Part shown: in pieces, positions 18,351-39,355 of the stretch
Layout: every line of letters starts with the position of its first letter
Numbering within the stretch: position 1 is the first letter of the stretch
NCBI GenBank assembly: GCA_024137785.1
Contig: JAHRHZ010000009.1
Coordinates: forward strand, 12,534,406-12,598,405
Direction of reading: 5' to 3'
Length of the DNA: 64,000 nt
DNA from: Ginglymostoma cirratum
Taxonomy: Eukaryota
Program-made: the position numbers and the translations under genes
Notes under the pieces: generated by a model
The model's database searches: none
What the model saw: only the letters and a program-made list of their open reading frames with translations
Told to the model about the DNA's origin: nothing

Positions 18351-18754
18351 CAGTTCCTTAAAAAGCGTATTGACAATCCAAAGCTGTAGCTCGAAGATAA
18401 TAACCATGATAATTATCATTAATTTTGTAAAAACTTATATAGTTCAGTATTGTCCTTTAATAAGGGCAATCTGCATTAGTTTTCTCCCATTCTAATATTT
18501 CCCATCCTGATCTTTTAATTAAATTTTGTTGCTTCTTATATTTTGTCCTATCTTCTGACTTGTCATCCACCTTTGTACCATTAATGGATTTTTCTTTAAG
18601 TTTTATAATACCTATTTCTTCCCCACCCAAAAAAAGTTTCTGCTTACCACAGAGGCTCAACCTGATAGAAAGCCAACACAAATAGAATATTCAGGTCCAA
18701 GTTAGAAAGTGTCCAGTTTGCAAAAATTCATACACCTCCTGGCCAGCATGTTCG

Positions 18755-20460
18755 TCAATTGTCTTCACAGTGGAAGACATGAGTAATATCCCAACAATTA
18801 AGGAGAGTCAGGGGGCAGAGTTGAGTATGGTAGGTATTACAAAAGAGAAAGTGCTAGAAAAGCTAAAAGGTCTGAAAATTGATAAATCTCCTGGCCCCGA
18901 TGGGCTGCATCCTAGAGTTCTGAGGGAGGTGGCTGAGGAAATAGCAGAGGCGTTGGTTGTGATCTTTCAAAAGTCACTGGAGTCAGGGCAAGTCCCAGAA
19001 GATTGGAAAATCGCTATTGTAACCCCCTTGTTTAAGAAAGGATGAAGACAAAAGATGGAAAATTATAGGCCGATTAGCCTAACCTCAGTTGTTGGTAAAA
19101 TTCTAGAATCTATCATTAAGGATGAGATTTCTAAATTCTTGGAAGTGCAGGGTCGGATTAGAACAGGTCAGCATGGATTTAGTAAGGGGAGGTCGTGTCT
19201 GACAAACCTGTTAGAATTCTTTGAAGAGGTAACAAGTAGGTTAGACCAGGGAAACCCAGTGGATGTTATCTATCTAGACTTCCAAAAGGCCTTTGATAAG
19301 GTGCCTCACGGGAGGCTGCTGAGTAAGGTGAGGGCCCATGGTGTTCAAGGTGAGTTACTGGCATGGATTGAGGATTGGCTGTCTGACAGAAGGCAGAGAG
19401 TTGGGATAAAAGGCTCTTTTTTGGAATGGCAACCAGTGACAAGTGGTGTCCCGCAGGGTTCAGTGTTGGGGCCGCAGCCATTCACCTTATATATTAATGA
19501 TCTGGATGAAGGGACTGGGGGCATTCTGGCAAAGTTTGCTGATGATACAAAGTTGGGCGGACAGGCAGGTAGTACGGAGGAGGTGGGGAGGCTGCAGAAT
19601 GATTTAGACAGTTTCGGAGAGTGGTCCAGGAAATGGCTGCTGAAATTCAACGTGAGCAAATGCAAGGTCTCGCACCTTGGAAAAAAGAATACAGGCATGG
19701 ACTATTTTCTGAACAGTGAGAAAATTCATAAAGCCGAAGTACAAAGGGATCTGGGAGTGCTAGTACAGGATTCTCTAAAGGTTAACTTGCAGGTTGAGTC
19801 CGTGATTAAGAAAGCGAATGGAATGTTGTCATTTATCTCAAGAGGGTTGGAATATAAAAGCATTTATGTGCTTCTGAGACTTTATAAAGCTCTAGTTAGG
19901 GCCCATTTAGAATACTGTGTCCAATTTTGGGCCCCACACCTTAGGAAGGACATACTGGCACTGGAGCGTGTCCAGCGGAGATTCACACGGATGATCCCTG
20001 GAATGGTAGGCCTAACATACGATGAACGAGGATCCTGCGATTGTATTCATTGGAGTTTAGAAGGTTGAGGGGAGATCTAATAGAAACTTACAAGATAATG
20101 CATGGCTTAGGAAGGGTGGACACTGGGAAGTTGTTTCCGTTAGGTGGGGATACTAGGACCCGTGGGCACAGCCTTAGAATTAGAGGGGGTCACAATTTAG
20201 AACAGAAATGAAGAGACATTTCTTCAGCCAGAGAGTGGTGGGCCTGTGGAATTCATTGCCACGGAGCGCAGTGGAGGCTGGGACGTTGAATGTCTTCAAG
20301 GCAGGAGATTGATAAATTCTTGATCTCGCAAGGAATCAAGGGCTACGGGGAGAGTGCGGGTAAGTGGAGTTGAAATGCCCATCAGCCATGATTAAATGGC
20401 GGAGTGGACCCGATGGGCCGAATGGCCTTACTTCCACTCCTATGTCTTATGGTCTTATGT
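18755..20460 (+). mobile_element. Relatively young 5'-truncated CR1 LINE (RT domain)
   Basis: SPGPDG, NYRPISLTS, YLDFQKAFDKV, GVPQGSVLGP, FADDTK; one in-frame stop (19043-19045) and a late frameshift; terminal tatggtct-like repeats. Confidence 0.95.
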
Positions 20461-21092: not shown

Positions 21093-21344
21093 CTAGACTG
21101 TAGTTTCCAAACCTGATGGAACAAAAATGTAACGAGCATCCGATGGACAATGGTTACCAGAATAGTCAAATAGTGATGGGTTATTACAATAATCATCCTC
21201 TGCCCAATACGTATGTGTCACCTTCCTGGAATCTGCAGTAGAGATAGACTTTGTTTGTTGATGGCGCCGGTAGATGTTATTTGTGTAGGTGGAACTCTGA
21301 GGAGGAGCCAGTGGGCTGAATTCTGATACACGATCCTTCTTGAT
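21093..21344 (-). CDS. ATP11A: ATP11A alternative terminal exon B, long tail (IKKDRVSEFSPLAPPQSSTY...SGLETTV*)
   Basis: Acceptor ttttgtttggtggcag, phase 0; DRVSEFSPLA resembles the mammalian long-isoform DRDSEFTPLA (recalled); 83 aa ending ETTV. Confidence 0.8.
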   Translation of the reverse strand: MKKDRVSEFSPLAPPQSSTYTNNIYRRHQQTKSISTADSRKVTHTYWAEDDYCNNPSLFDYSGNHCPSDARYIFVPSGLETTV

Positions 21345-21559
21345 CTGCCACCAAACAAAAGCGGTTATTAACTTTATCACAAACAAAATTACAGTTGGAA
21401 ATTGCCCAATTCACAATTATAGATTATTGGATTTTGAGTGCTATGGAGAATGCAAGACTGAGTGTGTTGTGGAAAGGCAGACAGTGGGGAGATTGGGGAA
21501 GGAAAGATTGTGGGAAGAGATAGAGAAGGAGAAGAATTGGTTGATACAGTGCCATAAAA

Positions 21560-22650
21560 TAGACTGTTGAGTAAAGTTATAGCTCATGGAATAAAACACG
21601 CAGTTGCAACACGGATATGGAATTACTGAGTAACAGGCAACAAAGAGGATGAACGAATGCTTAGTGTTGAAGCATGATCAGAAGTGGTATTCCCCAGGGG
21701 ACAGTTTTGGGTCCTTGCTTTTACTATACAAAATTTATATAGACCTTGGTGGACATGGCAATGTTTTAGAATTTGCAAATGATGCAAAACTTAGAAGCAC
21801 TGTGCACTCAGAGGACCGTGTCAAACTTCAAAGTGACGTAAACAAGTTTTTGGAAGGGTCAGAGGACAGAAATAGATATGTGAAGGGATTAATTACAATT
21901 GGAAGAACATAGACCACCATATAAAGAAAGGGTATGATATAGGATAGTTCTAAAGAACAGAGGGACCTTAGTGTGTGCATGCTTAAGCTATTTAAGGTTA
22001 CCAGATGGATCGAAAGGATGGTTAATAAAGCATTTAGTATCCTGGGTTCCATTAATAGGGGTATTGAATATAAAATCACGCAGGTGATGTTAAACATGTA
22101 TATTACACACTATTCTGGCCTCAATTGGAGCACTGTGTCCAGTTCTGGGCACCATGCTTTCTGAACGATGTGAAAGCATTAGAGAAAATTTAAAAAAGAT
22201 TCACGAGAATGCTTTTTGTGATGAGGCGATGCAGTTGTCAAGATAGATTTCTGCAACATAAACAGTCGTAACTTCTGCAAAGAAGAATGACAGGAGATCT
22301 GCTAAAGGTATTCAGAATTATGAAGGGTATGGACAAACTAAATAGAGAGAAACTGTTCGTAATTAGAAAAGAATTAGAATGAGAGGGTACAATTTAAAGC
22401 GATTGGCAGAAGAAGCAAAAGTGACATGAGGAAAACTTCTTCACATAGTGAGTGGTTAAGGTCTGAAGTGTGCAGGTAGAGTCAATTGATGCCTTCAAAG
22501 AGAATTAAACTGTTAGCTGACAAGGAAGAATGTGCAGGGTTACAGGCAGCTAGCAGGAAAATGATAAAAGTGCTTAATCAGAATGTTTGTGCAGATAACA
22601 TGGGCTGAATAGCCTTCTAACACACTTGAACAAATCTGTGATTCTGGGAT
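21560..22650 (+). mobile_element. Old CR1 LINE fragment
   Basis: FANDAKL and ILGSINRGIEYK remnants. Confidence 0.75.
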
Positions 22651-22711
22651 TGTGGGGCTACTGAGGAAGGGAGATCGTTGGCATTTTAGGGAAGGCAGAC
22701 TGTGGGAGTAT

Positions 22712-22781
22712 AACGTCAAGTTTTCCTGCTCCTATGATGCTGCTTGACCTGCTGTGTTCATCCAGCCCCATGCTTGTTATG
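22712..22781 (+). mobile_element. PLE pLTR fragment starting at the hammerhead cleavage site
   Basis: aacgtcaagttttcctgctcc...ttgttat; tgtgggagtata on both sides. Confidence 0.7.
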
Positions 22782-24183
22782 TGGGAGTATAGGAAATAGG
22801 TAGATTATAGGTAGTTTGGAGAAGTGAACATTATGGAAGTGTGAGGGAAGGAGAGACCGGAGAATGCTAAATTCTGGGACAATGGGTGTGGTAGGGAACA
22901 GCCGGGTAATTTAATTGAAATGCTCCTTGATGAACTGGTCTCTGGAAGCTCTAGCAGGTAGAGACACTGGTGGCTACTGCTTCTCCTCCCTCTCGTCCTC
23001 TGTATTTTTTGATATTCAAATGGCAGTAAGGGCTGGTCCATTATAGTGGCAAAACTGTAGATCAAGTAGCAAGTGACAACAAATCTGGCAACCCATTCAA
23101 GGGTGTGTTGCAAAGCTCCCCCAAATGGTACAGGCAGAGGAATCATTGCTGAGCACACTGATTGCTTACTCGATGATGTTCCTGGCAGCTTGGCTCTCAG
23201 TGTGGGCCTGATCTGTTCCCGTGTCCAGGTTTCTGACAGGAGTCAGGAGCCACATCCATAGACTATATATTTTGTCTCCCAATAGTCAGGTCTTAATCTG
23301 GAGGTCTGATTTGAATAAAGGTGACACAGAGCACTAACACAGGATGGAATTTGAGATTATATCTAGGATTGGAGCAATGCACTTAGTGAAGGAGAAATCC
23401 TCTCTGAAGATATGTTACTGGTCAAGACAGCTGTTCAATGCATTTGCCCCTGCCCCTGCCATACCCACATCCCCACCCCATTTGCTTTTTACTGCGCGTC
23501 TTGCTGAATCCCTCCCTGCAACCATAAGATTATGCATGACTGTAGCCAAACTATTTCTGAGGGAGCCAACAACAACAATGCAAAACCAGGAACATCCTTT
23601 CCTGTGCAAAGCAGACTTTCATGAATCAAAACGAAACACAAAAATGAACCCACAAGTTAAACAGTAGCCTAAGATGAGAAACAAGCAAATAAACTGAAAG
23701 TTACTATTGCTGGTGAAAGGGCACTTTTGCTGATTAATGACATTTCATGTTATGTGAAGTTAGTACATAGCGAGTATAGTAAACGGGGAGCAGGAAGCAG
23801 AAAGAAGCACAACACCTTAATTTGAAGATGGAGTTGAGATAGAAATTAGCTGTGATCTTACTCAACTGCAGACTGGTCTACTCCTGCTGCTACTTGGTCC
23901 CCAAAATGCAAAGAATGTACGCTCCATTACCTTATTTATGAGGTGTCAGAACAATTAAACTTTGGAACTCCTGGATTCCAGGTCCTGAGCCTGAACCCTC
24001 AGATAATATCTACATGCATTCTCTAGCGGTCTGATCCTAACATGTATCACCAAATGCAGAGTACTACAAATGTGGAAAATGGTTGGCCACAATCCCCGGT
24101 CCAACTCTCCTGTACCAATTGCTCATTCAGGAGCACATGCACTTGCTGCTATTTACAAGGGCCCACGGAAACCTAATGTCAGG

Positions 24184-24318
24184 CTAGGTGGCTTTTCTGG
24201 ATTCAAGATTAAATTCTGACGCTTCTGATGCAGTTTTGCCAGAGACGTGGTGCAATTTTACAAGAGTTGAGTTTTTGAGGTGTTGGCCTTTCAATTTGCT
24301 CAGAATGCGGTTAAGCTC
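24184..24318 (-). CDS. Candidate alternative terminal exon (ELNRILSKLKGQHLKNSTLVKLHHVSGKTASEASEFNLESRKAT*)
   Basis: Strong pyrimidine tract ending ttggtgtaaaag|; closes an 89-nt GT-AG intron (24319-24407); 44-codon phase-0 frame. Confidence 0.35.
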   Translation of the reverse strand, partial: ELNRILSKLKGQHLKNSTLVKLHHVSGKTASEASEFNLESRKAT

Positions 24319-24420
24319 CTTTTACACCAAAGAATAAAAAGGAAAATATGCAAAGAAAAGCAGGCAGAGTGCAAATCAAATATGACCAAAAAATGTGTGG
24401 CTATTACCTAACGTTTTATA

Positions 24421-24516
24421 TTACGCCTCAGCTGTTGATTGCATTCTCCAAAGGAGTGGTTGTACGTTGTTTTCAGAGCCTGTTATTACATTGCCAGCTT
24501 TACCTTTGAGCATCTC
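24421..24516 (-). CDS. Candidate alternative C-terminal exon (EMLKGKAGNVITGSENNVQPLLWRMQSTAEA*), ATP11C-a tail-like
   Basis: Acceptor tttctcctcatcattgcag, phase 0; donor tag|gtaata at 24408/24407; VQPLLWR is in the same register as ATP11C-a VRPLLLR (recalled). Confidence 0.5.
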   Translation of the reverse strand, partial: EMLKGKAGNVITGSENNVQPLLWRMQSTAEA

Positions 24517-25009
24517 CTGCAATGATGAGGAGAAACTCCTTTTAAAGCAAGAAGATGTTTATGTTACAGAGGAGAAAACATTCTCCACAATGGGTTTCTC
24601 TTGTTAACATCACAGTTAAATGCTCATTTTTCTTAAACTAAATCTTCAGTGTGAATAAGCATTTGATTTATTAACCCAGATTAGAGCACTTGAACTTGGA
24701 TCTGTATTCCAGTTAAAAGAAGTATAAGCACTGGAATTGCAACGGACTGCTGGAAATTTGGTGTAGACAGACTTTCTTTCACTGCAGTGCTTCAACGATG
24801 ACTCCAACTCAATCTCCAACCATTCCTTTTCCAGGAAACTCCAATAATAATGCATAATTTGCAAAACAATTACACACAAGTTACAAGACTGAGCAGCCCA
24901 CACCATACCCATCCGTATCCAATTCCACATTATACACACAGTGCATCTCTTTTTACCCAAGCTGCACATTATATACAAATTCATCTTTCTTTAGCCGTGA
25001 AAATGTAGT

Positions 25010-25340
25010 CATTGATGTAAATAGGGAAGCACAGCAGCTAATCAACATAAAGCAAGTGGCAATTACTATTTACAGTGTGTACAGTGATGTTGGTGGATAA
25101 ACAAAAATTGCCTGAGACACTCAGCGGAACTCCTCTGGTCTCTCTCAAATAGTGGTTCAAGGATATTTTATCCCGACCTGAGAGGTCAGTTGAGGCCATG
25201 ATTCAATGCTTTACACAAAATATGGCACACCAATGGTGCATCACTCCCTTAGCACCACACTGAAGCCTACCTTACATGCTTAAATCTCTGGAAAGGGACA
25301 TGAACCAATAACCATCTGACACAGAATCAAGAATGACATG
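25010..25340 (-). mobile_element. DeuSINE-like (SacSINE1/AmnSINE Deu-domain) ancient SINE
   Basis: Reverse complement agggagtgatgcacc...ctctcaggtcggga...gaggagttcc...caacatcac resembles the Deu domain as recalled. Confidence 0.55.
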
Positions 25341-25819
25341 CTTCCTTACCTTTGGCAGATATTACGTGCACTTCATCTTTACTGCAAGACCCAGGTTTGT
25401 ACATTAGTTCAGTTGAGAATGTAGAATACACTACACAGTAACAGGTATCTCTTCTTTCTGTGTCATTCTACTGCAGTGTGGTCACCTATGTTCCATCTCC
25501 TTGTCAAAAATCTCAATTCCTGTTCATCACTTCACATAAAAAAACTTCAAAAACCTTTCCACAAACAATGACAATGCACACAAATTTACTGCTACCACAA
25601 TGTGTATGAAAATGCATCACATGTTTGTGTTTTTTTTTTAAAATCTGGGTCCTTCTTGTTGTCAGGGTACGAAATATGATGTTCTTATCCCTAGATGTGT
25701 GCTTCTCCTTGGTATTCCCTCAATTACTGAAGAGTGAAGTAGCTGATTTCTGAGTTGCTGGTGGAGATTCCCGGAATTGAGACATCCTTCCTTCTTTATG
25801 GCTCGAGCTTGAGACAGAC

Positions 25820-27650
25820 AAATTGCAAGCAATGTGGATGAAGGGGAGCCTGTAGATGTGCTGTACTTGGATTTCCAGCAGGCATTCCACAAGATACAAT
25901 AAAGGTTACTATACAAAATAAGGTCTCATGGTATAGTGTAACATATATGGATGGATAAAGAATCAGTTAGCCAAAAGGAACACAGGGTAGCCATAAATGA
26001 GTTGACAGGATGTGGTGAGTTGTGTGCCACAGGGATCAGCAATAAGCTTCAATTATTTACAATTTGTCTCAATGAATTTGATGAATGGACTGAATGTATG
26101 GTTGCTAATTTGGCTGGTGACATAAAAACAACTAGGAAAGTAAATTCTGAGGAGGACAGAAGAACTTTGCAAAGGTATACACATAGGTTAAGTAAGCAGG
26201 CAAACATCTGGCAGTGTATACTGTGGGAAAATGTGAATTTGTCGAATTTGGCGAGAAGAATAGAAAAGCAGCATATTATTTGAATAGAGAGAGATTGAAG
26301 GATTTTGCAGTTCAGAGGGATATGGATATTATGGTAAATGAATCACAAAAACATAGCACATAGGGAGATATGGGTACTATGGTAAATTAATCATAAAAAG
26401 ATAGTAGGAGCAAATTACTGCAGATACTGGAACCCGAACTGAAAACTAAAAAATACTGGAAATCACAGGAGGTCAGGCAGCATCCATGGAGAGAAAGCAA
26501 GCTAATGTTTGAGTCTAGATGATTCTTCATCAGAGTTGATGTGAAGCATTGAAGGGGGCAGCTTTAATGCAATAGTTGGATGGGGGTGTTTAGGGAGGGA
26601 GGAGTGCTGGGGGAGAAACGGTGTTGATAGTTCAGATTAAGTGATCAGACTGTGAGAATGGCAGAACAACGGTGTGTCTAACTGCCAGACTGGAAAGAAC
26701 AGACAGTCCCACGGGGGTGGGAAGGGGAGAGAGGACATGGTGACAGACAATGTCACAATGTCACAAGTGAAGCTAAAAGAAAGGGAAGGAATGGGAATGG
26801 GTTCACAATTTGAAGGTGTTGAACTCAATATTAAGTCCAGAAGGTTGTAAAGTGTCTAGTCTGAAGATGAGAGGTTATTCCTCCAGTTTGCACTGTGATT
26901 TACTGGAGCATTGCAGTATGCCATGGACAGACAAGTGGGCACGCAAGCAGGACGCTGTGTTTATGGGAATGTTGGGGTCATGCTTGCGCTTGGTGTTGGT
27001 GTTCGAGGAATGGACTAGAGTGTCCCAGAGGGAACGATCCCTGTGAAAAAGATAGTATGCAGGTACAGCAAGTGATTAAAAAGCAAACCTAATTAATTTA
27101 TTTATTGCAAAGAGAATTAACTATAAAAGCAGGGATGTCATGCTACAGTTGTACATGGCACTGGTGAGACCACATCAGAAGTACTGTTTGATCTCCTTAG
27201 GAAGACATGTGAGAAGCAGTTCAGAAAGAGGTTCATTCACTTGATTCCTGGTATGGGTGTGAATTTTCATCTAAAGAAAGTTTGGGTATATTTTATCTGT
27301 ATCCTTTGGAGTTCAGAAGTATGAGATACAACCTTACCTGAGATACCAGGAACATATAAAAATCGAGTAGGACTTGGCCAGAAAATAAGGAATTGCCCAT
27401 TCAAGGTGCAGTTGAGGAGAATTTTTTCCACAGTGTTGTAAGCCTTCGGAAGTTTCTCTCCACACAGTTGTGAAAGCAGAATTGCTGAATATTTTTAAGG
27501 TAGAGTTGGACAGATTCTTGACTAACAAGAGTATCAGAAGTTTTCAGGGTGGTTCGCAAGATGGAGTTGCGGCCAGAATCATATCACGCATAATCTTATT
27601 GAGTGATGAATTTAGGCCTAACGGAATGAACGACCTATCCTCCTTTGAAT
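25820..27650 (+). mobile_element. CR1 LINE RT/3' fragment with a nested PLE
   Basis: VDVLYLDFQQAF and LAGDIK remnants; CR1 3' end. Confidence 0.8.
26407..27045 (-). mobile_element. PLE family 2 insertion with 12-bp TSD
   Basis: GIY-YIG C-terminal remnant and degenerate hammerhead (about 26505-26533); aaaaagatagta at 26395-26406 and 27046-27057. Confidence 0.8.
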
Positions 27651-27739
27651 CTCATGTAAGAAAAATCCCCTGCAATTGAACTCAACCCTCAATGGCAGCA
27701 GCCCAAGAAACTGTAAAAGGCAGACAATGCAGGGTTTCA

Positions 27740-28820
27740 AGAAGGGGGAAAGTTAGACACTGTGTCCTGGGAGATGACTACATCCCTCAGATTAGGTTGA
27801 ATTTGGATAGTTGTCAGACAGGGGAGAGTGATTGAGAGTCAAGCAGCTGTGGAGATCCAGGAAGTAGTAATGAAGGAGTTTCAGCTCTATGTACAAGGTA
27901 CTTGCTACTTGTACAGGTGACAACAAGGACTACAGTATGGATGGGAAAACATGCATGACAGCGCAGTATAGGAAAGTATTGAGTGGGGAAAAGTGAAAAG
28001 GAACGTGACAGTGACAGGAGTCAGTGCTGTGATGGAAATAGGTAATATTCTCGGCAGCTGCAGCCGTGAGCTCCAACACCATGCCTGCTTGATGCTAGGA
28101 TTTTAGCTATCTTCTGTACGGCTAGAGAAGAATCCAGTTGCTGTGGTCCATGTAGGAAGCCAACAATATGTAGAACTAGGAATGATGTACTGCTGAAACA
28201 ATTTGAGGTGTTAGGGTCCAAATGAAAAAAAAAAACTCTAAACATCACTCAGTGTTACCTGAACAATGCAGCAGTGTATTATTTGGTTACAAATGGGGAA
28301 AAATTTGCAAAGTTGGAATTTAGAAGAATGAGAGGTGATCTCAACCTATAGGATTCTTAAGAGGATTGAGAGGGTAAATGCTGAGAGGATGTTACCCCTC
28401 ATGAGACAGTCTAGGACCAGACAGCACAGACGTAGAACAAAGAGGCATTAATTTAAGACTGAGATGAAGATAGATTTCCTCTCTCAGAGGGTTGAGAGCC
28501 ATTGGAACTCCCTACCACAGAGAGCTGTGGGGACAGAGTCGTTATGTATATTTAAGGCTAAGATAGATAGATTCTTGCTTAGTAGGGGAATAAAGGGTTA
28601 CCAGGAAAGGGAAGAAGTGGACAGGAGGAATGCTGGATTGTCATGATCCTATTGAACGGCCAACCTACCTTGAGGGGCAAAACAGCCTATTCCTGTTCCT
28701 ATTTGTTATGGTCTTAGCTGCAGTGAAAAGGTGGGAGAAAGGTAGCAGTGAATTGCTTCTATAGAGAGCAAGCATGGGCACTAAGGGCCAAATGGCCTCC
28801 AACTCTCTTGTAACTGTTCT
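27740..28820 (+). mobile_element. CR1 ORF1 (esterase-like) remnant and CR1 3' fragments
   Basis: VHVG-like remnant similar to the 61.3-61.9 kb copy; FLSQRVESHWNSLP 3' remnant. Confidence 0.6.
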
Positions 28821-29989
28821 ATTACAATCAGGTGGTCAGAAGGGTGCAGGGTTTGACAGTAATACTGCACAAATAAAGTCTACGCAAAAAATAGTGGTAA
28901 AAAGTAAAATTAAAGTTTCTTAATAGCATGCATGAAGCATTCATATTGCACTAGAAGAACTGGTTATATTGTCACAGACAAAATTGTGAGGTGAATTGAA
29001 TTATTTTTGGTGCTCATCTTCTATCCATAACAGAAGTGATTTCTAATTTGTTTATAATGAATACTTCTTCTTTTCAAAAGATAACATGATGTGTTCCTGT
29101 CACACCTGCTGTTTGTTAAGTCCAATTTTTAAAAGACCCACAACAAACTCTATTTAAGGTTGAAACAAAAGGATAGTTTATACCAGTTTTTAACCTGGTG
29201 ATAATTTGCAATAGACATGCAGAAGCATACAAAGAAGAAAGAAGAGAGAAAACAGAAAGCTGGTTATAATCACAACTAATTTAGAATGATGATACGGGGA
29301 GCGATTCACGTGAATTGGAGTCCAGTAACTCAATGTGCAGTGAGGTTTCTTGAAGTTGGCTGCTCTGCCAGAATTCCTTTTCATAGGACCTCAGATAGCA
29401 TAGCATTATGATTCTTGTAGAATGGGTTCGGATGAAATACAGTGATCTTCATGGATCTCATGGTTTCGAGAGATGTTAAAATTAGAGCGAGACTTTAGGT
29501 GAACCTGGAGGTGCTTGCTGTCAGTTGGAATGTTAAAAAGCAGTATGACAAAAATGTTCAGAGCTATATACTCAAAATAATTCAGAAACCATAAGTTTCC
29601 CTCATGTAAGAGTTAGTGAATGAGTCAATTCAGTTAAAGAGATGGCTTCAATGCATCTGGTCAAAACTATTATGTACTGTGAAAGGTAATTGTGGAGCTA
29701 TTCATGCCATTGCAGTCATAATGAGTTTCAATAGCCTTCCCCATTTTCGTAACTGGGTGACGTCTAGGAAGACATTTCATCTGCTGTTCCTTAATGTTGG
29801 TTTTACTGGAATGTCTAGAAAATGCAAGAGCGTGAAATTTCCAAGAGAATGATGAGTTAGTTTTTGACCAATGAATGTATCTTAGAAACACAATCTGTGG
29901 TCAGTAGCTGCCAGCTTATCTCTGGCAAATGCCCACTTTTAAGAGGTAAATTAAATAAGAGAATATAGTTTAAATAAAAATTAGTACCT

Positions 29990-32950
29990 TTCTGGGAGTG
30001 GGGAGTACAAATAAAGATGCATAGGCTGATATAATCTTCATTGGAAAGCTATAGTCACAACGTGACCAAGGCTGGGAAATAAATATTCCAGAGTGTACAA
30101 CATTTCAAAAAGCTGTTACAATTGAATATGAGGTACAATAGCCCTGATTAGGACAGTAATAAGAAAGGACTTTGGCTCAGAGTATAAGGAAATAAACTGA
30201 ACATGGATGTAGATGAGAAACAATATGGCTTAGAAAAGACTGCTTGGAGTAGTTTTTGCTTCCTTACTTTGTTATACCAGTGTACAAAGCATAGGCAAGA
30301 AATAATCAGAGGTTGCAACAAAGGCCATGTAATAATCTTGAGGGACTGGATAATTCAAATAAATGCACTTAATCTGACAGATGATCCTACAGACTGCTTC
30401 TATTACAGCTTCTTAAAACTCTAAACTATATCAAACTAAAAAAGAACAAAGCTATTTTAGATATAGTACAGTATAACTGGTCGGAGTCAATAAGTAATTT
30501 CATAGCAAGCGATCCTCTGGGAAAGGTGATAATAAATCGCGTAATTCCATAAAATGTTTCAGAGCAAAATAACATACTTGAAAAGAATAATCTTTAATCT
30601 AAACAAAGTTTAACCTAAACAACAAAGGGGAAAATGGGAGTGATTAATAGTGTAAAAAATCAAAAAGGAACAGTTAGAAACTTTTAAAGAAACAATTCAC
30701 AGCATTCAAAAAATATATTCAAGTAAAAATGCTTATACAGAAAGATTGATCCCTGCCTTACCTGGGAATTTAAAGATGGGATAGTTTTAAAATAAGATAC
30801 TTATAACATCAGGAGGAATAGAGTAAGTCTGAAGATTTGGAAAGTTTTAGAAATTAACAAGGGGTGACCAAAAAGTTGATAAAAAGAAAAACAAAGTGAA
30901 AGAAACTAATTATGAATATAAAATGCATTTTAAGAGTTTTTATACGTCTTAAAAATTACAATAGGTGGTAAAATAAATTTTTGTCCCTTTGAGGCATAGA
31001 CAATAAATTATCACAGGGAATAGGAAATGAAAGACAAATTATTTAACGGGTAACAGGAAATGACAGACATAAACTATTTAGCAGAAAATGAAGGGCAACC
31101 AAGAAGTCAATAAAAGTGAAGTACTTAAAGTAATCAATATTAGCAGAAAGAAGTTGTTGGAGAAAACTATGGGACTAAATGCTGACAATTGATGAAGATC
31201 TGGGATTTTAAATCCCAAAGTTTGAAAGAAGAAAGCTATAGAGAAAGTGGATGCATTGGTTATGATATTCCAAAATTGCTTAGATTGGCTCAGTATTTGG
31301 AAGCTAGCAAATGTAGCACCACCAGTTAGGAACAGAAGGAAAGATTAACCATGGAACGAGAGGCAAATTAAAATCACATTGGTCTGTTATCGTGAAAATG
31401 CTTGAATCTATTATCAAGGATGTTTTAACAATTGATTTAGAAAATCAAAGTATGGCCAATCAAAATCAACATGGATTTAGGAAAGATAAATCATGTTTGA
31501 CAAAGGTGTTGAAGATTACCGAGTTTGTAACTACCAGGTCAGATAAAAGGGAGCCAATAAAAAGAGTATGCTTGAATTTTCAAAGTTTTTATAAATTAAC
31601 AAGGTGTGACCAAAAAGTCGATAAAAAGGTATTCAAAGGTATTTTCAGAGGTATTCTATAGAGTCACACAAAAGGTTAAGTTTGCATAGATTTGGGGCTG
31701 GGTATATTAACATGGATGGAGCATTTGTTAATAATAGGAAGCAGCATGTAGGCACAAATGCAACATTTTCACGTTGTAAGCCATCACTAGTGGCATGCCA
31801 ACAGGATCAAATCTGAGGCCTCAATTATTTGCAATCTCTATTTATGACTTAGATGAAGAGACTGAGAGTAATACTCCCAAATTGGTTGAAAGCTCGTCAA
31901 CACAGTGTGGAGCTGGAGGAACGCAGCATGTCAAGCAGCATCAGAGGAGTAGGAAAGTCGACATTTCGGGTTGGGACCCTTCTTCAGAACTGTTCCTCCA
32001 GCTTCACACTGTGTTGTCTGTGACTCCAGCATGTGCAGTTCTTGGTACCTTCTTAGTTGAAAGCTAGCTGGGGTGTAGTCTGTAAATATAAGGAAGATAC
32101 AAAGAGATTTAAAAGGCTAAATAAGCAAGTAAAATTTAGCAGATGAATAAAATGTGGTGAAATGCGAGGTTAGTCACTTCTTTAATAATAGAAGAAGAAA
32201 ATTTTTAAAGGAGTTTGCAGAGACTTGGATGTACGCATACAAAAAACACAAAGTTAGCATGCAGGTACTGAAGACAATTCAGAAAAGAAGTGATATATTG
32301 GCTTTTATTGTGGCTGGACAGGAGCACAAGAGCAACAAAGTCTTTCTACAGCTGTATAAGGCTTTGGGGAGACGACACTTGGGATACTCTCCATAATTAT
32401 GGGTTCAAGATTTAAGGAGGAGTATATCTGCCTTGCAGGCAGGTTCACGAGTTTTGCTCCTAGGATGAGAGAATTATCCAGGGTGACAGGTTGAGTAAAC
32501 CAGGCCTAAACTTTCTCGACTTTTGAAGAATGCGAGATGGTCTTAATGAAACACATAAAATTCTGAATCAGCTCGACAGAGTAGGTGCTGATATGTTGAT
32601 TCCTGTGGTTGGTCTCTGTAGGATAGTGGCTCATATCTTGCTAAAAAATGTGCTGATTGGTCAATTAGAATCTAGATGAAGAGAAATTTCTTTATTCAGA
32701 GAGGCTGTGAATCTTTGGTATTCTTACCTAGAAAGCAATGGTTGTGCATTCAATAAGCATATTCAAAGTTGATGTTGCTAGATTTTTGGTTGATGGGGAT
32801 ATCATGGAATATAGGATTTGGGATTCAGAAAGGAAAGTAGAACTGAATTTAGAAGGTGGTGGGTGGGGTGGGGGTGTGGTGGGGAGGTCAGCTATGATCT
32901 TGTTCACTGACATAACTGGCTGTGCTGGCCATGTGTCTTACTGTAGTTTC
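29990..32950 (+). mobile_element. Heavily decayed CR1 ORF2
   Basis: KMLESIIKD...QHGFRKDKSCLT, QLFAISIYDLDE and FLQLYKAL remnants. Confidence 0.8.
31895..32055. mobile_element. Miniature inverted PLE insertion in CR1 with TSD
   Basis: Inverted pLTR with hammerhead 31960-31987 (-) plus direct tail; gttgaaagct at 31885-31894 and 32056-32065. Confidence 0.8.
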
Positions 32951-33815
32951 TACTTGTCTGTTCCTGTGCAAATTTCAAGTGTGAAAATAGAGAGTAGAAG
33001 AACATGAAAATTGGGAGTGGGAAAGGTAGGATAATCAGATTCTGCACTTACTAGCAGTTACAGATTTCTTTTAGAGAAAGCAAAGATTTTAACAAATTCT
33101 CTGGAAGATTCTGGGAAACAATGAAGTTCAAGGAACCCGTTATAGGTCCTAACACTCCTGATCTACAAATGGACTATCAGATAACTTATTTCTTCTGTTA
33201 TCTTCTGTATATAGTATCTCCAGGATTGCTTGATTTAACAGCTACTATTACAAAGAAACAAAAAAGCAAAAAGCTCATACTAATCCATCCACAAAACAGA
33301 ATATTGAAAAGTCATGTGCAACACTGTGCCACCACAGTAATACAGACAATAATCTGTAACAACCTTTCCACTGCTGAAGCCCATTTGAACAAGGACTACA
33401 GCAATGCAAGGAAAAAGCCTGCCACCACTACCTTAGAACAGAACCTTGAACCTATTCTTTTAGAAACCATTTATGTTCCTCTAAGTGCACCATTTGGAAT
33501 CAATTCCTAGGAATTTTTCTTCAACCAAGTGAGAACGTTAAGTTCAGCAGCTTCTACCTCTTTTCTAGAAACTGCATAACCTCACATGACCCGTAGATTC
33601 TCAAACCAAAGTCAAAGGTTACCCATTTGATTTACTTATGGACAGAATGAAATGTAATTGGAAACCTTGGCTCTCGTCAATTTATTTTCCAGATTGCCTC
33701 CTTTAAAGGGATTGTCTTTTATACTTCTAAATATCCACTGATAGTAATAATGATATGGAAAATCCAACTCTCACGCACCTTAACAATAGAGGGAAGAAGT
33801 ATCACCTTTTTTCCA

Positions 33816-33893
33816 TTAGAAACTTAGACTACTGGATGTCTGGGAAAGCATAAAGATGGTGGACTGTTCAGCTGAAATGTACTTTCGCTTGGT
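33816..33893 (-). CDS. ATP11A: ATP11A alternative C-terminal exon A (TKRKYISAEQSTIFMLSQTSSSLSF*)
   Basis: Nearly identical to the mammalian ATP11A short tail as recalled (EQSTIFMLSQTSSSLSF); phase-0 acceptor acacag; donor aag|gtgata 10 nt after the stop (exon ends 33806). Confidence 0.9.
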   Translation of the reverse strand, partial: TKRKYISAEQSTIFMLSQTSSSLSF

Positions 33894-34059
33894 CTGTGTT
33901 TTTTCCAGTTGAAAGTAGGACATGGGAGCCCAATATTCATTTACAAACAGCGAAGGATGAATATTCAGGAACAGCAGAGGTAGGGCAAAAGGAGAGAGAA
34001 ACACAAGGATTAATCTGGTTAAAGGCAACATATAGAGAAAGCGGTGTACAATATATACA

Positions 34060-34865
34060 GAAACCTGTGCGCACTGCATGCTAGAAACTGTGCATACAAC
34101 ACATCTGAAAACCAGGCACAACTTGTGCCGAAAGCCGTGCAAAGCGCGTGCCGATAGCCGTGCACAGCCCGTGCTGATAGTCATGCACAGCGCATGTTAA
34201 TAGTCGTGAACAGCGCATCTTGAAAACCGTGCACAGTGCAAGCCAATAGTCATGAACAATGCTTGCTGGTAGTAACGACAGCACATGCTGATAGTCGTGC
34301 ACAATGCATGTTAATAGTTGTGTATGGCGCATGTTGATAATCGTGCACAGCGCATGCCAAAATCTGTGCACAGCACACACCGATAGTCGTGAACAGCGCT
34401 CGCTGATTGTAATAAACAGCACATGCTGGTAGTCGTGCAAAGCACATGCCAAAATCCACGCACAGCGCATCCTGAAAACCGTGCACAGTGCACGCCCATA
34501 GTCATCAACAGCGCTCGCTGATAGTAATGAACAGCACATGCTGATAGTTGTGCACAGCATATGTTGATGATCGTGCACAGCACATGCCAAAAGCCATGCA
34601 CAGCGCATCCTGAAAACCGCACACAGTGCATGCTGATAGTTGTGCACAGCGCATGCCAAAAGCCGTGCACAGTGCATGTTGAAAGCTGTGCACAGCTCAC
34701 TTTGAAAGTTGTGTATACAAAGCACATGCTGAAAGCCATGTACAGTGCATTCCAATAGTCATGCACAGTGTATACTGAAAATGTGTACAAACAGCACATG
34801 CTGAAAGTTGTGCACAGTGTATATTGAAAGCCGTGCACAGTGCATGTTCAAAGATGTGAGCAACA
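34060..34865. repeat. Degenerate 23-bp minisatellite (about 35 units), consensus close to TGCACAGCGCATGCTGATAGTCG
   Basis: Visible 23-nt periodicity; variant cagcgcatc(c/t)tgaaaaccg recurs at 34211, 34463 and 34601. Confidence 0.9.
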
Positions 34866-35049
34866 TACATAGAAACCTTTAACACATGCAGAAATCCATT
34901 TACAATTGCTTGACAAACTTAACTATTACCCAAGATGAATACATGAAACTTATATATGTGTTTTAGAGATAACTTTAGGTAAAAAGCACTTTCAAAGAAA
35001 CAGGTCTTTAAAAACAAAGCATTTCACTTCCTGTGAGAAATAGGTCAGG

Positions 35050-35450
35050 TAACGAAATGTGCCCCGGTTCACTTGAAACCATTGGGTAAAACAGAAACTC
35101 AAAAATTTGAACACATCAGGGTCAAAAGAAAAAAATGTGCCTGTGCACAATAAAATGCACAGGATGAAATGAGCTGTCATCACTGAAACTTGGCATTCCC
35201 TGGCTGAAAAGAGTCTGAATACTGTGAAACATGCCTGTACATGGCTGGAAAGTACCTAAATGCAGCTGGGATCTGTGTATGCATGGCTAAAACGCACCTG
35301 TGTATGACTGAAACATGGCTGCTACACTGCGCAAAATGTAGACTGTGAAATGTGCCTGCATATGACAAAAACATTCTGAATATATAAAATCTGTTTACGC
35401 ATGGATGAAACGTACCCAGTGCATGGCCAAAATGTGCCCCTGCAAAATCT
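35050..35450. repeat. Degenerate 21-bp tandem array (about AAACATGCCTGTGCATGGCTG)
   Basis: Consecutive 21-mers aaacatgcctgtacatggctg / gaaagtacctaaatgcagctg / ggatctgtgtatgcatggcta / aaacgcacctgtgtatgactg. Confidence 0.55.
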
Positions 35451-35962
35451 TTCTATGCCTGCATGCTGCAAAATCAGGATATTATCCAGCACAGGCTGTT
35501 AAATAGCAAGTAACATTTGTATCCCATAAGTGCCAAGTAATAATCATCCATTCTGCTTTGACAGGTTCCGAGATGGATGATAAGTATGATGTACACGCTT
35601 CGTTACAAGCATGGCATGTGGTTCTCAAAAGGTGTGTAATGCATTGATAGGACGGTTATGTGCTCCCTGTAAGTGCCCTGATTTCCTCTCTGCATGTTCC
35701 TGTCGAAGTCTCTCAATGCTACTGGTGCCTTCCAAACCAGCCTTCTTGATTTTGGTGGATCACATCACCATCTCCTGTGAGCCAGTGGGGAGATGACTGT
35801 TTAGGGATGTTTTGAAAGTATCCCCAGGTGTGTCCATAACCTTCCTGCGAGCCTCTTGCCACAACCTAGTTCCAAGTAAAGCGGTTGCTTTCGGATCCCG
35901 ATGTCAGGCAAATGAACATGTGAAGATCTGGTTTTGAGGGAAGCTGGGCAAATTAGCTGTAA

Positions 35963-36532
35963 TAACAAGGTGTGGAGCTGGATGAACACAGCAGGCCAAG
36001 CAGCATCAGAGGAGCAGGAAGGCCCGNNNNNNNNNNNNNNNNNNNNNNNNNNNNNNNNNNNNNNNNNNNNNNNNNNNNNNNNNNNNNNNNNNNNNNNNNN
36101 NNNNNNNNNNNNNNNNNNNNNNNNNNNNNNNNNNNNNNNNNNNNNNNNNNNNNNNNNNNNNNNNNNNNNNNNNNNNNNNNNNNNNNNNNNNNNNNNNNNN
36201 NNNNNNNNNNNNNNNNNNNNNNNNNNNNNNNNNNNNNNNNNNNNNNNNNNNNNNNNNNNNNNNNNNNNNNNNNNNNNNNNNNNNNNNNNNNNNNNNNNNN
36301 NNNNNNNNNNNNNNNNNNNNNNNNNNNNNNNNNNNNNNNNNNNNNNNNNNNNNNNNNNNNNNNNNNNNNNNNNNNNNNNNNNNNNNNNNNNNNNNNNNNN
36401 NNNNNNNNNNNNNNNNNNNNNNNNNNCGGGCCTTCCTGCTCCTCTGATGCTGCTTGGCCTGCTGTGTTCATCCAGCTCCACACCTTGTTATCTCAGATTC
36501 TCCAGCATCTGCACTTCCTACTATCTCTGAAA
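35963..36532. mobile_element. Inverted PLE family 1 insertion spanning the assembly gap, 14-bp TSD
   Basis: Mirror-image pLTR ends flank the Ns; caaattagctgtaa at 35949-35962 and 36533-36546. Confidence 0.8.
36027..36426. other. Assembly gap (400 N)
   Basis: Run of n. Confidence 1.
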
Positions 36533-36559
36533 CAAATTAGCTGTAAGTTGGCTTCATAC

Positions 36560-37045
36560 CATCCTCCAAATCCGATGGCAAGGCAATCCAGTAGCAGCGT
36601 CATCTCCAACCAGAGAGAATCTAACAATATCCTTTTGACATTGAATGGTCTTAACTTTGTTAAATTCCCAACCATCAACATGCTGGGGGTTTATTATTGA
36701 TCAAAAATTTTACTGGTCCAGCTACATCAACACAGTGGATACAAAAGCAGGACAGAAGCTGGGTATTTTGTAGTGAGTAACTTCTCTCTAGTCCCATGGC
36801 TTTTTCATCATCTGCAAAGGCACAAGTCAAGTTTGTGATGGAACATTTCCCACTTGCCTAAAATGAGTCAAAATGCAGCAATTCCCCTATCTAACAACAC
36901 TGTTACCTCTACCACATCAGTGTAATGGTTCAAGGCTTCATTGTCAGCTTTATTGTTCACTGTCAGCTTCTCAAGTACAATTCGGATAGAAAACAAGTGC
37001 TGGCCATGTCAATGAAGATCAGATTCCCATGAATGGATAAAGATA
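36560..37045 (+). mobile_element. CR1/L2-group LINE 3' end
   Basis: PTINMLGV...DQK...WSSYINTV remnant; tail shared with the SINE at 3915-4275. Confidence 0.6.
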
Positions 37046-37099
37046 CAAGAAAGGGTGGTAGGGGGTGGTGGCATGGCAAAGAGAGGTTGATGGGAAACT

Positions 37100-38230
37100 C
37101 CTGAGTTGATGCTGTGGGATGAGAAGGGAATATAATGCTGAAGACGCTCTGATGAGCAATAAGAAAGACCTGTAACTATGAGGGTGCTCCCACGGAACTG
37201 AATAACGAAGGAGAGGGACTGAAGAACTCGGCTGATCATGCCCAACACTGTGGAGTCATCCAATAAAGAGCGTATCAGTGCCATCATGGACAGGAAGCAC
37301 ATTGTATATGATTGAATGATCATTCTTGACAGAAAGCAAGACTTTGTAGATCTGGTAGCAGAGTTTTTGGGAATCCTTGGGTAATGGGTTGAGTAACTGG
37401 CACAAAAAGGTTTTTGAAGAGATTAGCGATCATGTTGAATGAGATGGCTATAGAGAGAAGCGGACATGACATTTGGACTTTCTGGCTCATTAAGGGAATG
37501 TTAGCTTTCACAATGAAAAGATTCCAAGATAGACTGGAGGAAGGAAAATAAAAATAGGTAGTTCACTGGCAAAGTGAGATGCAAAAGGGAACCTTTTTCC
37601 AAATAACAGAGATTTACATAAGACAAATTCTTAAGCTGAAGGGAGCAATAATAGGGAACAAAAGAATCCCCAGTAAAAATGGGAGATCAGGAGTTGTGAA
37701 AATGATTTGTAGGTTGTTGCTTCAAGCTGCTGAATGATCAGCCATGAGAAGTGAGGTCCAGTTTGGAGAGAGTAAAGTAGCAAAGACATTTTGAAACGAG
37801 TCGTATTCAGACAGCAAATAAAAGGAACAACAAGATAAGTGACAACTGATCTAGTGCAGGTAAGTCTAGGTTCATCAAAGCTACAAGTGGCAATATCTGT
37901 TTAAAATGGAGATAAGCAGAGGTGCAGGCATGAAAATCAGGAGCCTGGAACACCAAAGACTAAGGAGCTGAATAATTCAGGAAGCCTGGAGAGGCAACTA
38001 AGTTGTTGGGCAACGTGAAATACCAGTCCAGAATGGTGAGGAAGATCAGAAAGCGAAATGCAGAGTAGGACAAAGTTAATGGTCACAAGAGTTGAACAGA
38101 GACTGGCATAGCAAACACCATGAACAACATCAGCAGTCCAGTAGATGTAAAACCTGCAGCTACAGCACTGGATAAAAGGCAGTAGTATAATGGAAACAAT
38201 ATGTGAGGCAAGAAGTCTATCCTGTAAATT
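37100..38230 (-). mobile_element. Very old L2-like LINE RT remnant
   Basis: Degenerate GSILGPLLF-like and AAFD-like codons on the minus strand. Confidence 0.4.
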
Positions 38231-39189
38231 AAGATTGAAGGAAATGTTATTTCTAATAAATATATTAGAAAATATATGCAGCAAATATATTGGGTTTCTT
38301 TAAATGCTGAAGTTAGGGATCAAAATACACAAAATTAAAAGGGAGAGTTTAACTATAGATGTTTAAATTCCACTCTGCATTTGAACCTACTTTTAAAGAC
38401 TATTTTAAGAAATCGAGATGATCCCACACCCCAAAAACAGGAGGGGTTCAAGAAGGCAGTTTAGCACCACCTTCTCCGGGGAAACAAATGCTGGCCCAGC
38501 CAGCGATGCCCACATCCCACAAATGAATAACAAATTTTTAAAAAAGAATCAGGTCCTCAATATAGCTATGTAACTTTAAGGGCTTAACCTCAGGTTGGAA
38601 CACTACCTTTTGCTTCACACAAATGACGACCAGTGTATTGCTGGCACACAATTCATTTGGGACAGAAACAGAAGCAGCAGATGTTACTTTCTGGCCCTTT
38701 GTCTTTTTAGGCACCAGAATTCTAATGGCAAGTGAAGCTACTGTCCCACTCCACACTTCCCTCATAAGAAGCACTCAGGATCTGAGTTTCACTGCTTAGA
38801 CCTGGTATCACTGCATGCCATTCCATTTCCTACCCATACCTGCCCAAATTACACCTGCAGAAATTTGCAGCCAAACTGCCTGACCTGCAGAAATCTGCCA
38901 ATCACAGAATGCATGGATATTTTTTCTGCGATTGTGTCATTCTAAAAGTAACATCTCATTCCATATGTGTACACTTTTTAAATTTTTCAGTTAATCAATC
39001 TATTGTGTACCAAACAACTGTGAATTTAGTCAGACGCAAAGCAAGATTTCCTCCACAACCTATTTTTTGCTTATTATCTGAATAAAAAAAAATACAATCA
39101 TGGCCAATTGCAATGTACTACACATTCAGATAGCAATTGATATTTTTTACTGATAATTTTTGACACAATACACTGTTCATTACTGGTAC

Positions 39190-39355
39190 CTGAAGTTTTT
39201 CCGTTGCTGTTGGCCAAAGTTGCCTGCAAAGCACTTTTTTAACTACATCTGGAAGGAGGCTGATTGTTATTAGCAGGATAATCCCTAACCAGGCTGGCCC
39301 TGTTGAAAGCATCTGCATGAAGACATAGTACATTCTCTGGTAATTCAGAAAAGGC
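39190..39355 (-). CDS. ATP11A: ATP11A last constitutive exon ([55 protein letters not shown])
   Basis: TM10; acceptor ctcag, donor gtacca; 166 nt, phase 2-0. Confidence 0.95.

Follow-up and report, generated by a model that had tools for sequence, protein, structure and literature searches.

The window, a 64,000-nt stretch of the Ginglymostoma cirratum genome, carries the 3' end of ATP11A on its minus strand. For the exon at 39355-39190, identity to ATP11A proteins reaches 96% (among the best 120 of 576 matches), and the ATP11A protein of a related shark maps exon by exon onto the window by tblastn, with its final piece at 24516-24408. The exon at 39190..39355 (minus strand, as are all exons given below) is the last one common to all ATP11A isoforms. 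It encodes TM10 and the start of the cytosolic tail (residues 1055-1109 of P0124 align by tblastn at 39354-39190); its final codon, CAG, specifies Gln and is followed by a phase-0 donor. An 88-nt exon at 33806..33893 holds 25 codons ending in SSLSF, a stop, 10 nt, and a GT; it is the counterpart of the human isoform-a tail, and the same tail a is found in P0123, P0128, P0139, P0161, and P0189. A likely 32-nt exon lies at 25350..25381, with a CAG acceptor and a GTAAGG donor, and opens with TAA in phase 0. The exon under study, a candidate alternative exon of 109 nt for a third tail (tail c), occupies 24408..24516, with its coding part at 24516-24424, a TAA stop at 24423-24421, 13 untranslated nt, and a GT donor. 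Residues 18-22 of its peptide form a VQPLL core with a conserved Leu-Leu (24451..24465), followed by R-x-x-S at residues 24-27. The coding part of the last exon (21093..21344) encodes the long tail b, which ends in ETTV if joined in frame to 39190; this exon serves as 3' UTR whenever 24408-24516 is included.

The last exon of G. cirratum starts at 21344, a junction seen in contig X6, without DILRQ, the five residues that open tail b in other sharks. Judging by the sequence, the Gln codon CAG at the start of tail b appears to have been turned into an acceptor with the frame kept. A conserved S-E-F-T/S-P-L stands at the start of long tail b, and its end reads E-T-x-(V/L/I) from chimaera to manatee and aardvark (21093-21107 in the window), which we take to be a class I PDZ-binding pattern. 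Primate tails b end differently, in xMLV or QLLV among the tails compared. Two shark models, P0129 and P0140, lack the TM10 exon and have the last exon translated in a different frame; they are probably unproductive predictions. Region 34084-34918 is a degenerate tandem array with a 23-bp unit, about 25 copies, and open frames rich in Cys and His; on the gene strand, it precedes the tail-a exon by about 230 bp. The intron separating the shared exon from the tail-a exon holds a 400-N assembly gap (36027-36426) between inverted repeat copies. The 69 bp at 22712-22780 belong to a very abundant repeat, with more copies across the window, and reach about 4800x depth in a polyA library. Reverse-transcriptase frames, presumably of LINE type, lie on the plus strand downstream of the ATP11A last exon (18686-20065), with other fragments scattered in the window.

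A first-pass annotation, made from the letters alone, had proposed a hidden ATP11A exon consisting of an acceptor, a phase-0 frame of 31 codons, a stop, 13 nt, and a GT donor. All of these elements are present exactly at 24516-24408, the acceptor is pyrimidine-rich, and the attribution to ATP11A holds: the exon sits at the ATP11A position, and the same tail ends ATP11A models. Of 21 sequencing runs listed, none of the matching ones recorded as RNA, 8 were compared with the window; their RNA nature is guessed, and the joints seen in them are canonical splice joints. A contig from the same species (X6; 1650 nt, depth 14.3) has 0 differences over 24408-24518 and runs from 24408 directly into 21344, a splice to the last exon. 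In organism B, a 113-nt contig (X7) covers exactly 24407-24519 at a depth of 126, versus 20-21 in the flanks, and shows 4 differences, versus 32 in 228 nt of flank. The corresponding contig of organism D (X10) covers 24407-24519 at a depth of 83, versus 7 in the flank, and runs on into that organism's last exon. The exon is delimited in three of the four runs of the assembled-contig comparison (X6, X7, and X10); X9 covers 24478-24951 only, unspliced.

Raw reads from a polyA run (X20) cover the exon at about 0.7x, like the intron background, with no joints seen; in the same run, the last exon (21188-21334) stands at about 6x and the sequence just upstream of it at 0.14x. This low depth is uninformative for a minor exon. 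The X21 raw reads gave no cover beyond a repeat, and the X4 raw reads left the exon uncovered, though X4 is indexed as containing its sequence. For the downstream joint, the first-pass annotation had offered 24318 or 21344. X6 bears out 21344, while 24318 was rejected as the next exon, since contigs X5 and X7 cross it unspliced. An internal donor 13 nt into the exon had also been pointed out, and a GT is present there (24502..24503), arising from the Gly codon at residue 5. Among the sharks compared, this GT occurs in the G. cirratum genome only; eight of nine other sharks have Asp at this residue, and one has Asn. Its use was rejected, as none was seen and all three exon-spanning contigs, one of them (X6) from G. 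cirratum, read through it.

The other loose end of X6 matches 25350 upward, i.e., the 32-nt exon joined upstream of 24408-24516; 30 letters of this end were seen, from which we infer the 5' boundary of the 25350..25381 exon. This is the only upstream join seen in G. cirratum, 39190 having lain outside both stretches compared with reads. Because the 32-nt exon opens with TAA in phase 0, exon 24408-24516 would be untranslated in such a transcript, and the 25381-25350 exon may be a poison exon. A branch-point-like CTAAT lies upstream of it, and the extra tail piece in catshark model P0157 may derive from the same region. The direct join of 39190 to 24516 is present in database models of 10 other cartilaginous-fish species. 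Position 24519, at which the X7 and X10 contigs both start, is the point of divergence between the intron and a CAG-ending upstream exon; this would fit a direct join from 39190.

The exon could instead be mainly untranslated in this shark, lying behind an earlier stop (that of the 32-nt or the tail-a exon) and tuning the mRNA by decay, with the coding isoform being minor. The sole same-species upstream join, to an exon opening with a phase-0 TAA, and the low raw-read depth would agree with such a role, as would the description of the human exon as rare and present in a minority of transcripts (accessible part of PMC12148042). Yet the evidence from a single contig of a single run is thin, and a direct junction into the human exon has been measured in lung according to the available text of PMC10550956. 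Moreover, peptide identity of 27-30 of 31 residues in sharks, together with a recognizable bony-vertebrate tail, would be hard to explain without translation. We therefore regard a mainly untranslated exon as quite unlikely and consider it very probable that 24408-24516 encodes a translated third tail of ATP11A.

Look-ups in RefSeq and UniRef clusters place the tail at the end of full-length or C-terminal ATP11A models in 10 of 13 cartilaginous-fish species (Hemiscyllium, two Chiloscyllium, Heterodontus, Carcharodon, Heptranchias, Pristiophorus, two Scyliorhinus, and Callorhinchus), in a set of automatic predictions that included no skate or ray. No listed member for Rhincodon, Stegostoma, or Cetorhinus has it, with 15 of 22 members listed in one cluster. 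Identity of the G. cirratum peptide to the annotated tails is 27-30 of 31 residues in the nine other sharks. In chimaera, it is 14 of 22 residues, and the model there (P0159) stops directly after PLL. Bichirs, bowfin, gar, frogs, skink, turtle, alligator, birds, marmot, and apes including human likewise carry a third tail at this joint. The 19 distinct bony-vertebrate tails alone rank the 24408-24516 frame first of 590 AG-started decoys from 21345-39189 (z=4.0). Leu-Leu followed by 7-10 residues is found in 20 of 21 bony-vertebrate rows (20 named species and one fish contig), an invariance that is inflated because the tails were chosen partly by the LL pattern; LL is missing from some salmonid and flatfish tails that begin as the gar tail does (P0065, P0420, and P0215). 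A search of longer proteins with the 45-residue candidate frame gave seven candidates, none at E<=10, a false blank given the cluster look-up results. A search started from the marmot tail region gave nothing but the query, and among PDB sequences there was no alignment across the tail.

Because it is spliced in X6, ranks first of 590 decoy frames, and has its peptide shared by sharks and chimaera, exon 24408-24516 is real and spliced, with an in-frame tail beyond chance. The tail has been kept since before the split of cartilaginous and bony fishes, from chimaera to human. The check for conservation in chondrichthyans and gar that the first-pass annotation had proposed turned out positive, with the frame conserved at the orthologous position in sharks and chimaera and a homologous LL tail in gar. 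The exon is neither hidden nor shark-specific, however; the isoform is already predicted by RefSeq or UniRef in the 10 cartilaginous fishes. Nor is the tail foreign to mammalian ATP11A, where the first-pass annotation knew of none: it is present in marmot, orangutan, chimpanzee, and human, and its loss in mammals was rejected.

The G. cirratum genome contains two paralogues of ATP11A. The one on C16 is ATP11C, by its likeness to human ATP11C chains, and the one on C17 we take to be ATP11B from its sequence features. About 12.4 kb behind the shared exon of ATP11C lies a 109-nt exon (L005:2761-2869, corresponding to G000:C16:63238760-63238868) with a phase-0 frame of 31 codons, TGA, 13 nt, and a GT, whose peptide contains VEPLLARSFS. 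The two exons are alike in length, phase, codon count, stop-to-donor distance, and position in the gene, and their acceptor tracts are similar. Ranked against 4248 decoys, defined as AG-stop-GT exons on both strands of 90 kb, the ATP11C exon comes first by DNA with flanks (66 versus a mean of 15, SD 11) and by peptide (29 versus a mean of -6, SD 7), and 6th by exon-only DNA. The 109/13 geometry occurs in 10 of the 4248 decoys. The proposed alignment to the ATP11C exon is thus confirmed in size, phase, stop position, and similar acceptor, with rank 1 in two of three scores.

In ATP11C-a, endocytosis is triggered once PKC phosphorylates S1116 of SVRPLL; L1120 and L1121 are required, and S1126 is auxiliary (PMC5680300 and the review PMC11775268, each in its accessible part). 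The register suggested by the first-pass annotation (V18, P20, L21, L22, R24, and S27) proved sound: V-x-P-L-L-x-R-x-x-S matches the frog ATP11C tail P0232 and fits the spacing of those four residues in PMC5680300. In the shark ATP11C tail, the S1116 position is taken by Pro, and a Ser directly precedes it (SPVEPLL), with CD4-like spacing and a Ser-Pro site, and frog ATP11C (P0232) has Thr at the S1116 position; the PKC switch of ATP11C may be a later tuning. The 50 kb behind the ATP11C exon yielded neither an ATP11C-b-like LLxY exon nor a counterpart of tail b.

Since the ATP11C exon has the same build and ranks first of 4248, exon 24408-24516 and the ATP11C-a tail exon in all likelihood share ancestry, which bears out this part of the earlier proposal of an ancestral ATP11A/C tail exon. 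Convergence, with two unrelated short terminal exons each gaining PLL, could also produce the likeness. The protein similarity is weak (tblastn of the ATP11A tail against the ATP11C region gives E=0.48 within 90 kb, and a profile HMM of 18 ATP11A tails does not place the ATP11C exon within the 12 best of 3588 pieces), and the 40 kb behind the ATP11B exon yielded no homologous exon. The joint agreement in length, phase, codon count, stop-to-donor distance, gene position, and acceptor, with rank 1 of 4248, nevertheless makes convergence very improbable. The shark ATP11A tail scores 29 against shark ATP11C, 21 against emu ATP11A, and 16 against frog ATP11C. Because human ATP11A versus frog ATP11C scores 0 while shark to shark scores 29, the shark ATP11A tail, as far as these alignments indicate, is a bridge from the bony-vertebrate ATP11A tail to the ATP11C-a tail.

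The C-terminal tails of ATP11 proteins set localization (PMC7530900, accessible part), and the Leu-Leu pair of the third tail lies in the predicted cytosolic tail, after the TM10 exon. Motif tests were made on 32 rows, 11 from cartilaginous fishes and 21 from bony vertebrates. The Asn that the first-pass annotation had read at the phospho-Ser position is found at -4 in all 11 cartilaginous rows, G. cirratum included; Ser stands there in 14 of the 21 bony-vertebrate rows, human included. Across species, N, S, I, K, and R occur at -4, and D/E in 0 of 32 rows. Asp or Glu occupies position -3 in 19 of the 21 bony-vertebrate rows, with Asp in 11 of 12 amniote rows; in sharks, this position is V, I, or G, with Val in G. 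cirratum. R-x-x-S at the S1126 position occurs in 10 of 11 cartilaginous rows (the chimaera tail ends earlier) and in none of the 21 bony rows. Because its -4 residue is Asn, never acidic, the shark tail falls outside both the canonical [DE]xxxL[LI] and the phospho-dileucine classes. In ATP10B, the leucines of ETTPLL are reported to be needed and the Glu seems dispensable, in the part of the source available. DxxLL is the pattern read by GGA adaptors, and the RET site listed in the accessible part of the review PMC13581114 contains DGPLL.

A real coding tail, paralogous to that of ATP11C, might also use its Leu-Leu for autoregulatory folding, ER export, or an ezrin-like scaffold contact. P4-ATPase tails are often autoregulatory, and the Leu-Leu motif (LLxY) of ATP11C-b binds ezrin (PMC11775268, accessible part); the -4 residue that is never acidic across species (N, S, I, K, R) fits such a role as well. 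This alternative is weakened by the Leu-Leu of the paralogous exon, a proven endocytic signal (PMC5680300, accessible part), by the absence of [GA][FY]AFS and LLxY motifs from the tail, and by the acidic residue (D/E) that most bony-vertebrate rows, 19 of 21, have at -3; we consider it unlikely. By analogy, we lean, if narrowly, toward the Leu-Leu of the tail working as a dileucine-type sorting signal. The shark tail, which is short and likely disordered, most likely would act in a dileucine-like way, its Leu-Leu being conserved while the residues around it change.

The explanation we favor as probable is that 24408-24516 is a spliced alternative ATP11A exon, likely a third tail from the ATP11A/ATP11C ancestor, with a predicted dileucine-type sorting signal that would relocate the flippase. 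Joining 39190 to 24516 would yield a flippase of about 1140 residues. Nonsense-mediated decay follows a 50-55-nt rule. The mRNA, with its stop 13 nt before the last junction, would escape decay, since stop-to-donor distances are short: 13 nt in the shark ATP11A and ATP11C exons, 10 nt in tail a, and about 11 nt in human (104 minus 93, computed rather than read from DNA). The Leu-Leu would then dock on a clathrin adaptor, lowering surface phosphatidylserine flipping, as with ATP11C-a. Lineages would vary in the trigger. With the ATP11C-like VxPLLxRxxS kept and Asn at -4, sharks would have only the auxiliary Ser (the S1126 equivalent) available, and most amniotes have S-D-x-P-L-L, which would combine a Ser at the S1116 position with a GGA-type DxxLL.

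The human form of the tail is seen in P0268 (KAI2569934.1), a 74-residue partial ATP11A whose first 44 residues are isoform b up to residue 1109 and whose remainder is a 30-residue tail with SDGPLL. A 104-bp exon is described in the accessible part of PMC9035003 as exon 2 of ATP11A-203 (ENST00000415301) and exon 29 of mouse Atp11a. The RT-PCR primer for it given there translates to QRGVK, with which the P0268 tail begins, and this ties the 104-bp exon to the P0268 peptide. In the same source, a variant at the last base of this exon moves the donor 153 bp downstream and segregates with dominant deafness; it is described as lengthening a 3' UTR by an unclear mechanism, and the available portion of the text contains none of the words "nonsense," "NMD," "decay," and "leucine." A deafness deletion takes out the 104-bp exon plus the isoform-b exon (PMC13314912), and an exon-12 donor variant in one family indicates that the hearing loss is not limited to tail exons (PMC12467345), each according to the accessible part of the report. 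In lung, the direct junction into the 104-bp exon is subject to a splicing QTL that colocalizes with COVID-19 severity and pulmonary fibrosis (PMC10550956); the available part of PMC11872446 calls the ATP11A-203-type isoform "highly truncated" and favors expression effects.

We tentatively raise the possibility, which we consider less likely than not, that jawed vertebrates including humans make full-length ATP11A with an ATP11C-type sorting tail, removable from the surface on signal, and that both human variants act via this isoform. The Newfoundland deafness variant would shift the last junction to about 164 nt past the stop and turn the isoform into a decay target; decay is predicted from the 153-bp donor shift because the normal stop sits close to the donor. 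The COVID-19/IPF lung splicing QTL would shift the share of the third-tail isoform. Against decay stand the longer products readily seen in the blood of variant carriers (PMC9035003, accessible part), so that any decay would be partial at most.

ATP11A has been treated as a plasma-membrane phosphatidylserine flippase that, unlike ATP11C, is not endocytosed, with the isoform not given in the accessible part of PMC5680300. The exon is already annotated in sharks and known as sequence in human. We found no description of the tail peptide, of the dileucine in it, or of a relationship to ATP11C-a in the open-access literature, from which subscription papers may differ, and no reading of the human variants via an ATP11C-type tail in that same literature. 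Two human genetics results, the deafness donor variant and the lung splicing QTL, converge on one poorly annotated exon. The shark exon shows that the human 104-bp exon encodes an ancient tail and links it to the ATP11C-a endocytosis tail, which human and frog sequences alone do not. The finding gives both open human results a testable mechanism.

Among known systems, the SVRPLL tail of ATP11C-a likely comes from a paralogous exon, and shark ATP11A shares with it V-x-P-L-L-x-R-x-x-S, its last Ser at the S1126 position, and, in G. cirratum, the exon geometry. The shark tail differs in that the S1116 position is Asn in shark ATP11A (Pro in shark ATP11C), in a surrounding sequence without the basic kinase context, and in that endocytosis is a prediction for the shark protein. 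The [DE]xxxL[LI] signals for AP adaptors, such as ATP8A1 ERAQLL and ATP10B ETTPLL, likewise place a PLL or SLL core in a flippase cytosolic tail, but an acidic -4 occurs in 0 of 32 ATP11A tail rows. The DxxLL signals of GGA adaptors resemble the candidate sites of amniote ATP11A tails, which have D at -3 in 11 of 12 cases, mostly as DGPLL; shark tails, in contrast, lack D at -3, and the ATP11A Leu-Leu stands 9-10 residues from the end. ATP11A-203 exon 2, the human orthologue of the shark exon, lies after the tail-a exon and before the last exon, in phase after Gln 1109, and encodes a 30-residue PLL tail. Its human form is annotated as a short partial transcript only, in contrast to the full-length models of fish, frogs, reptiles, and birds, and human has SDGPLL with a basic end where the shark has NVQPLL with RxxS.
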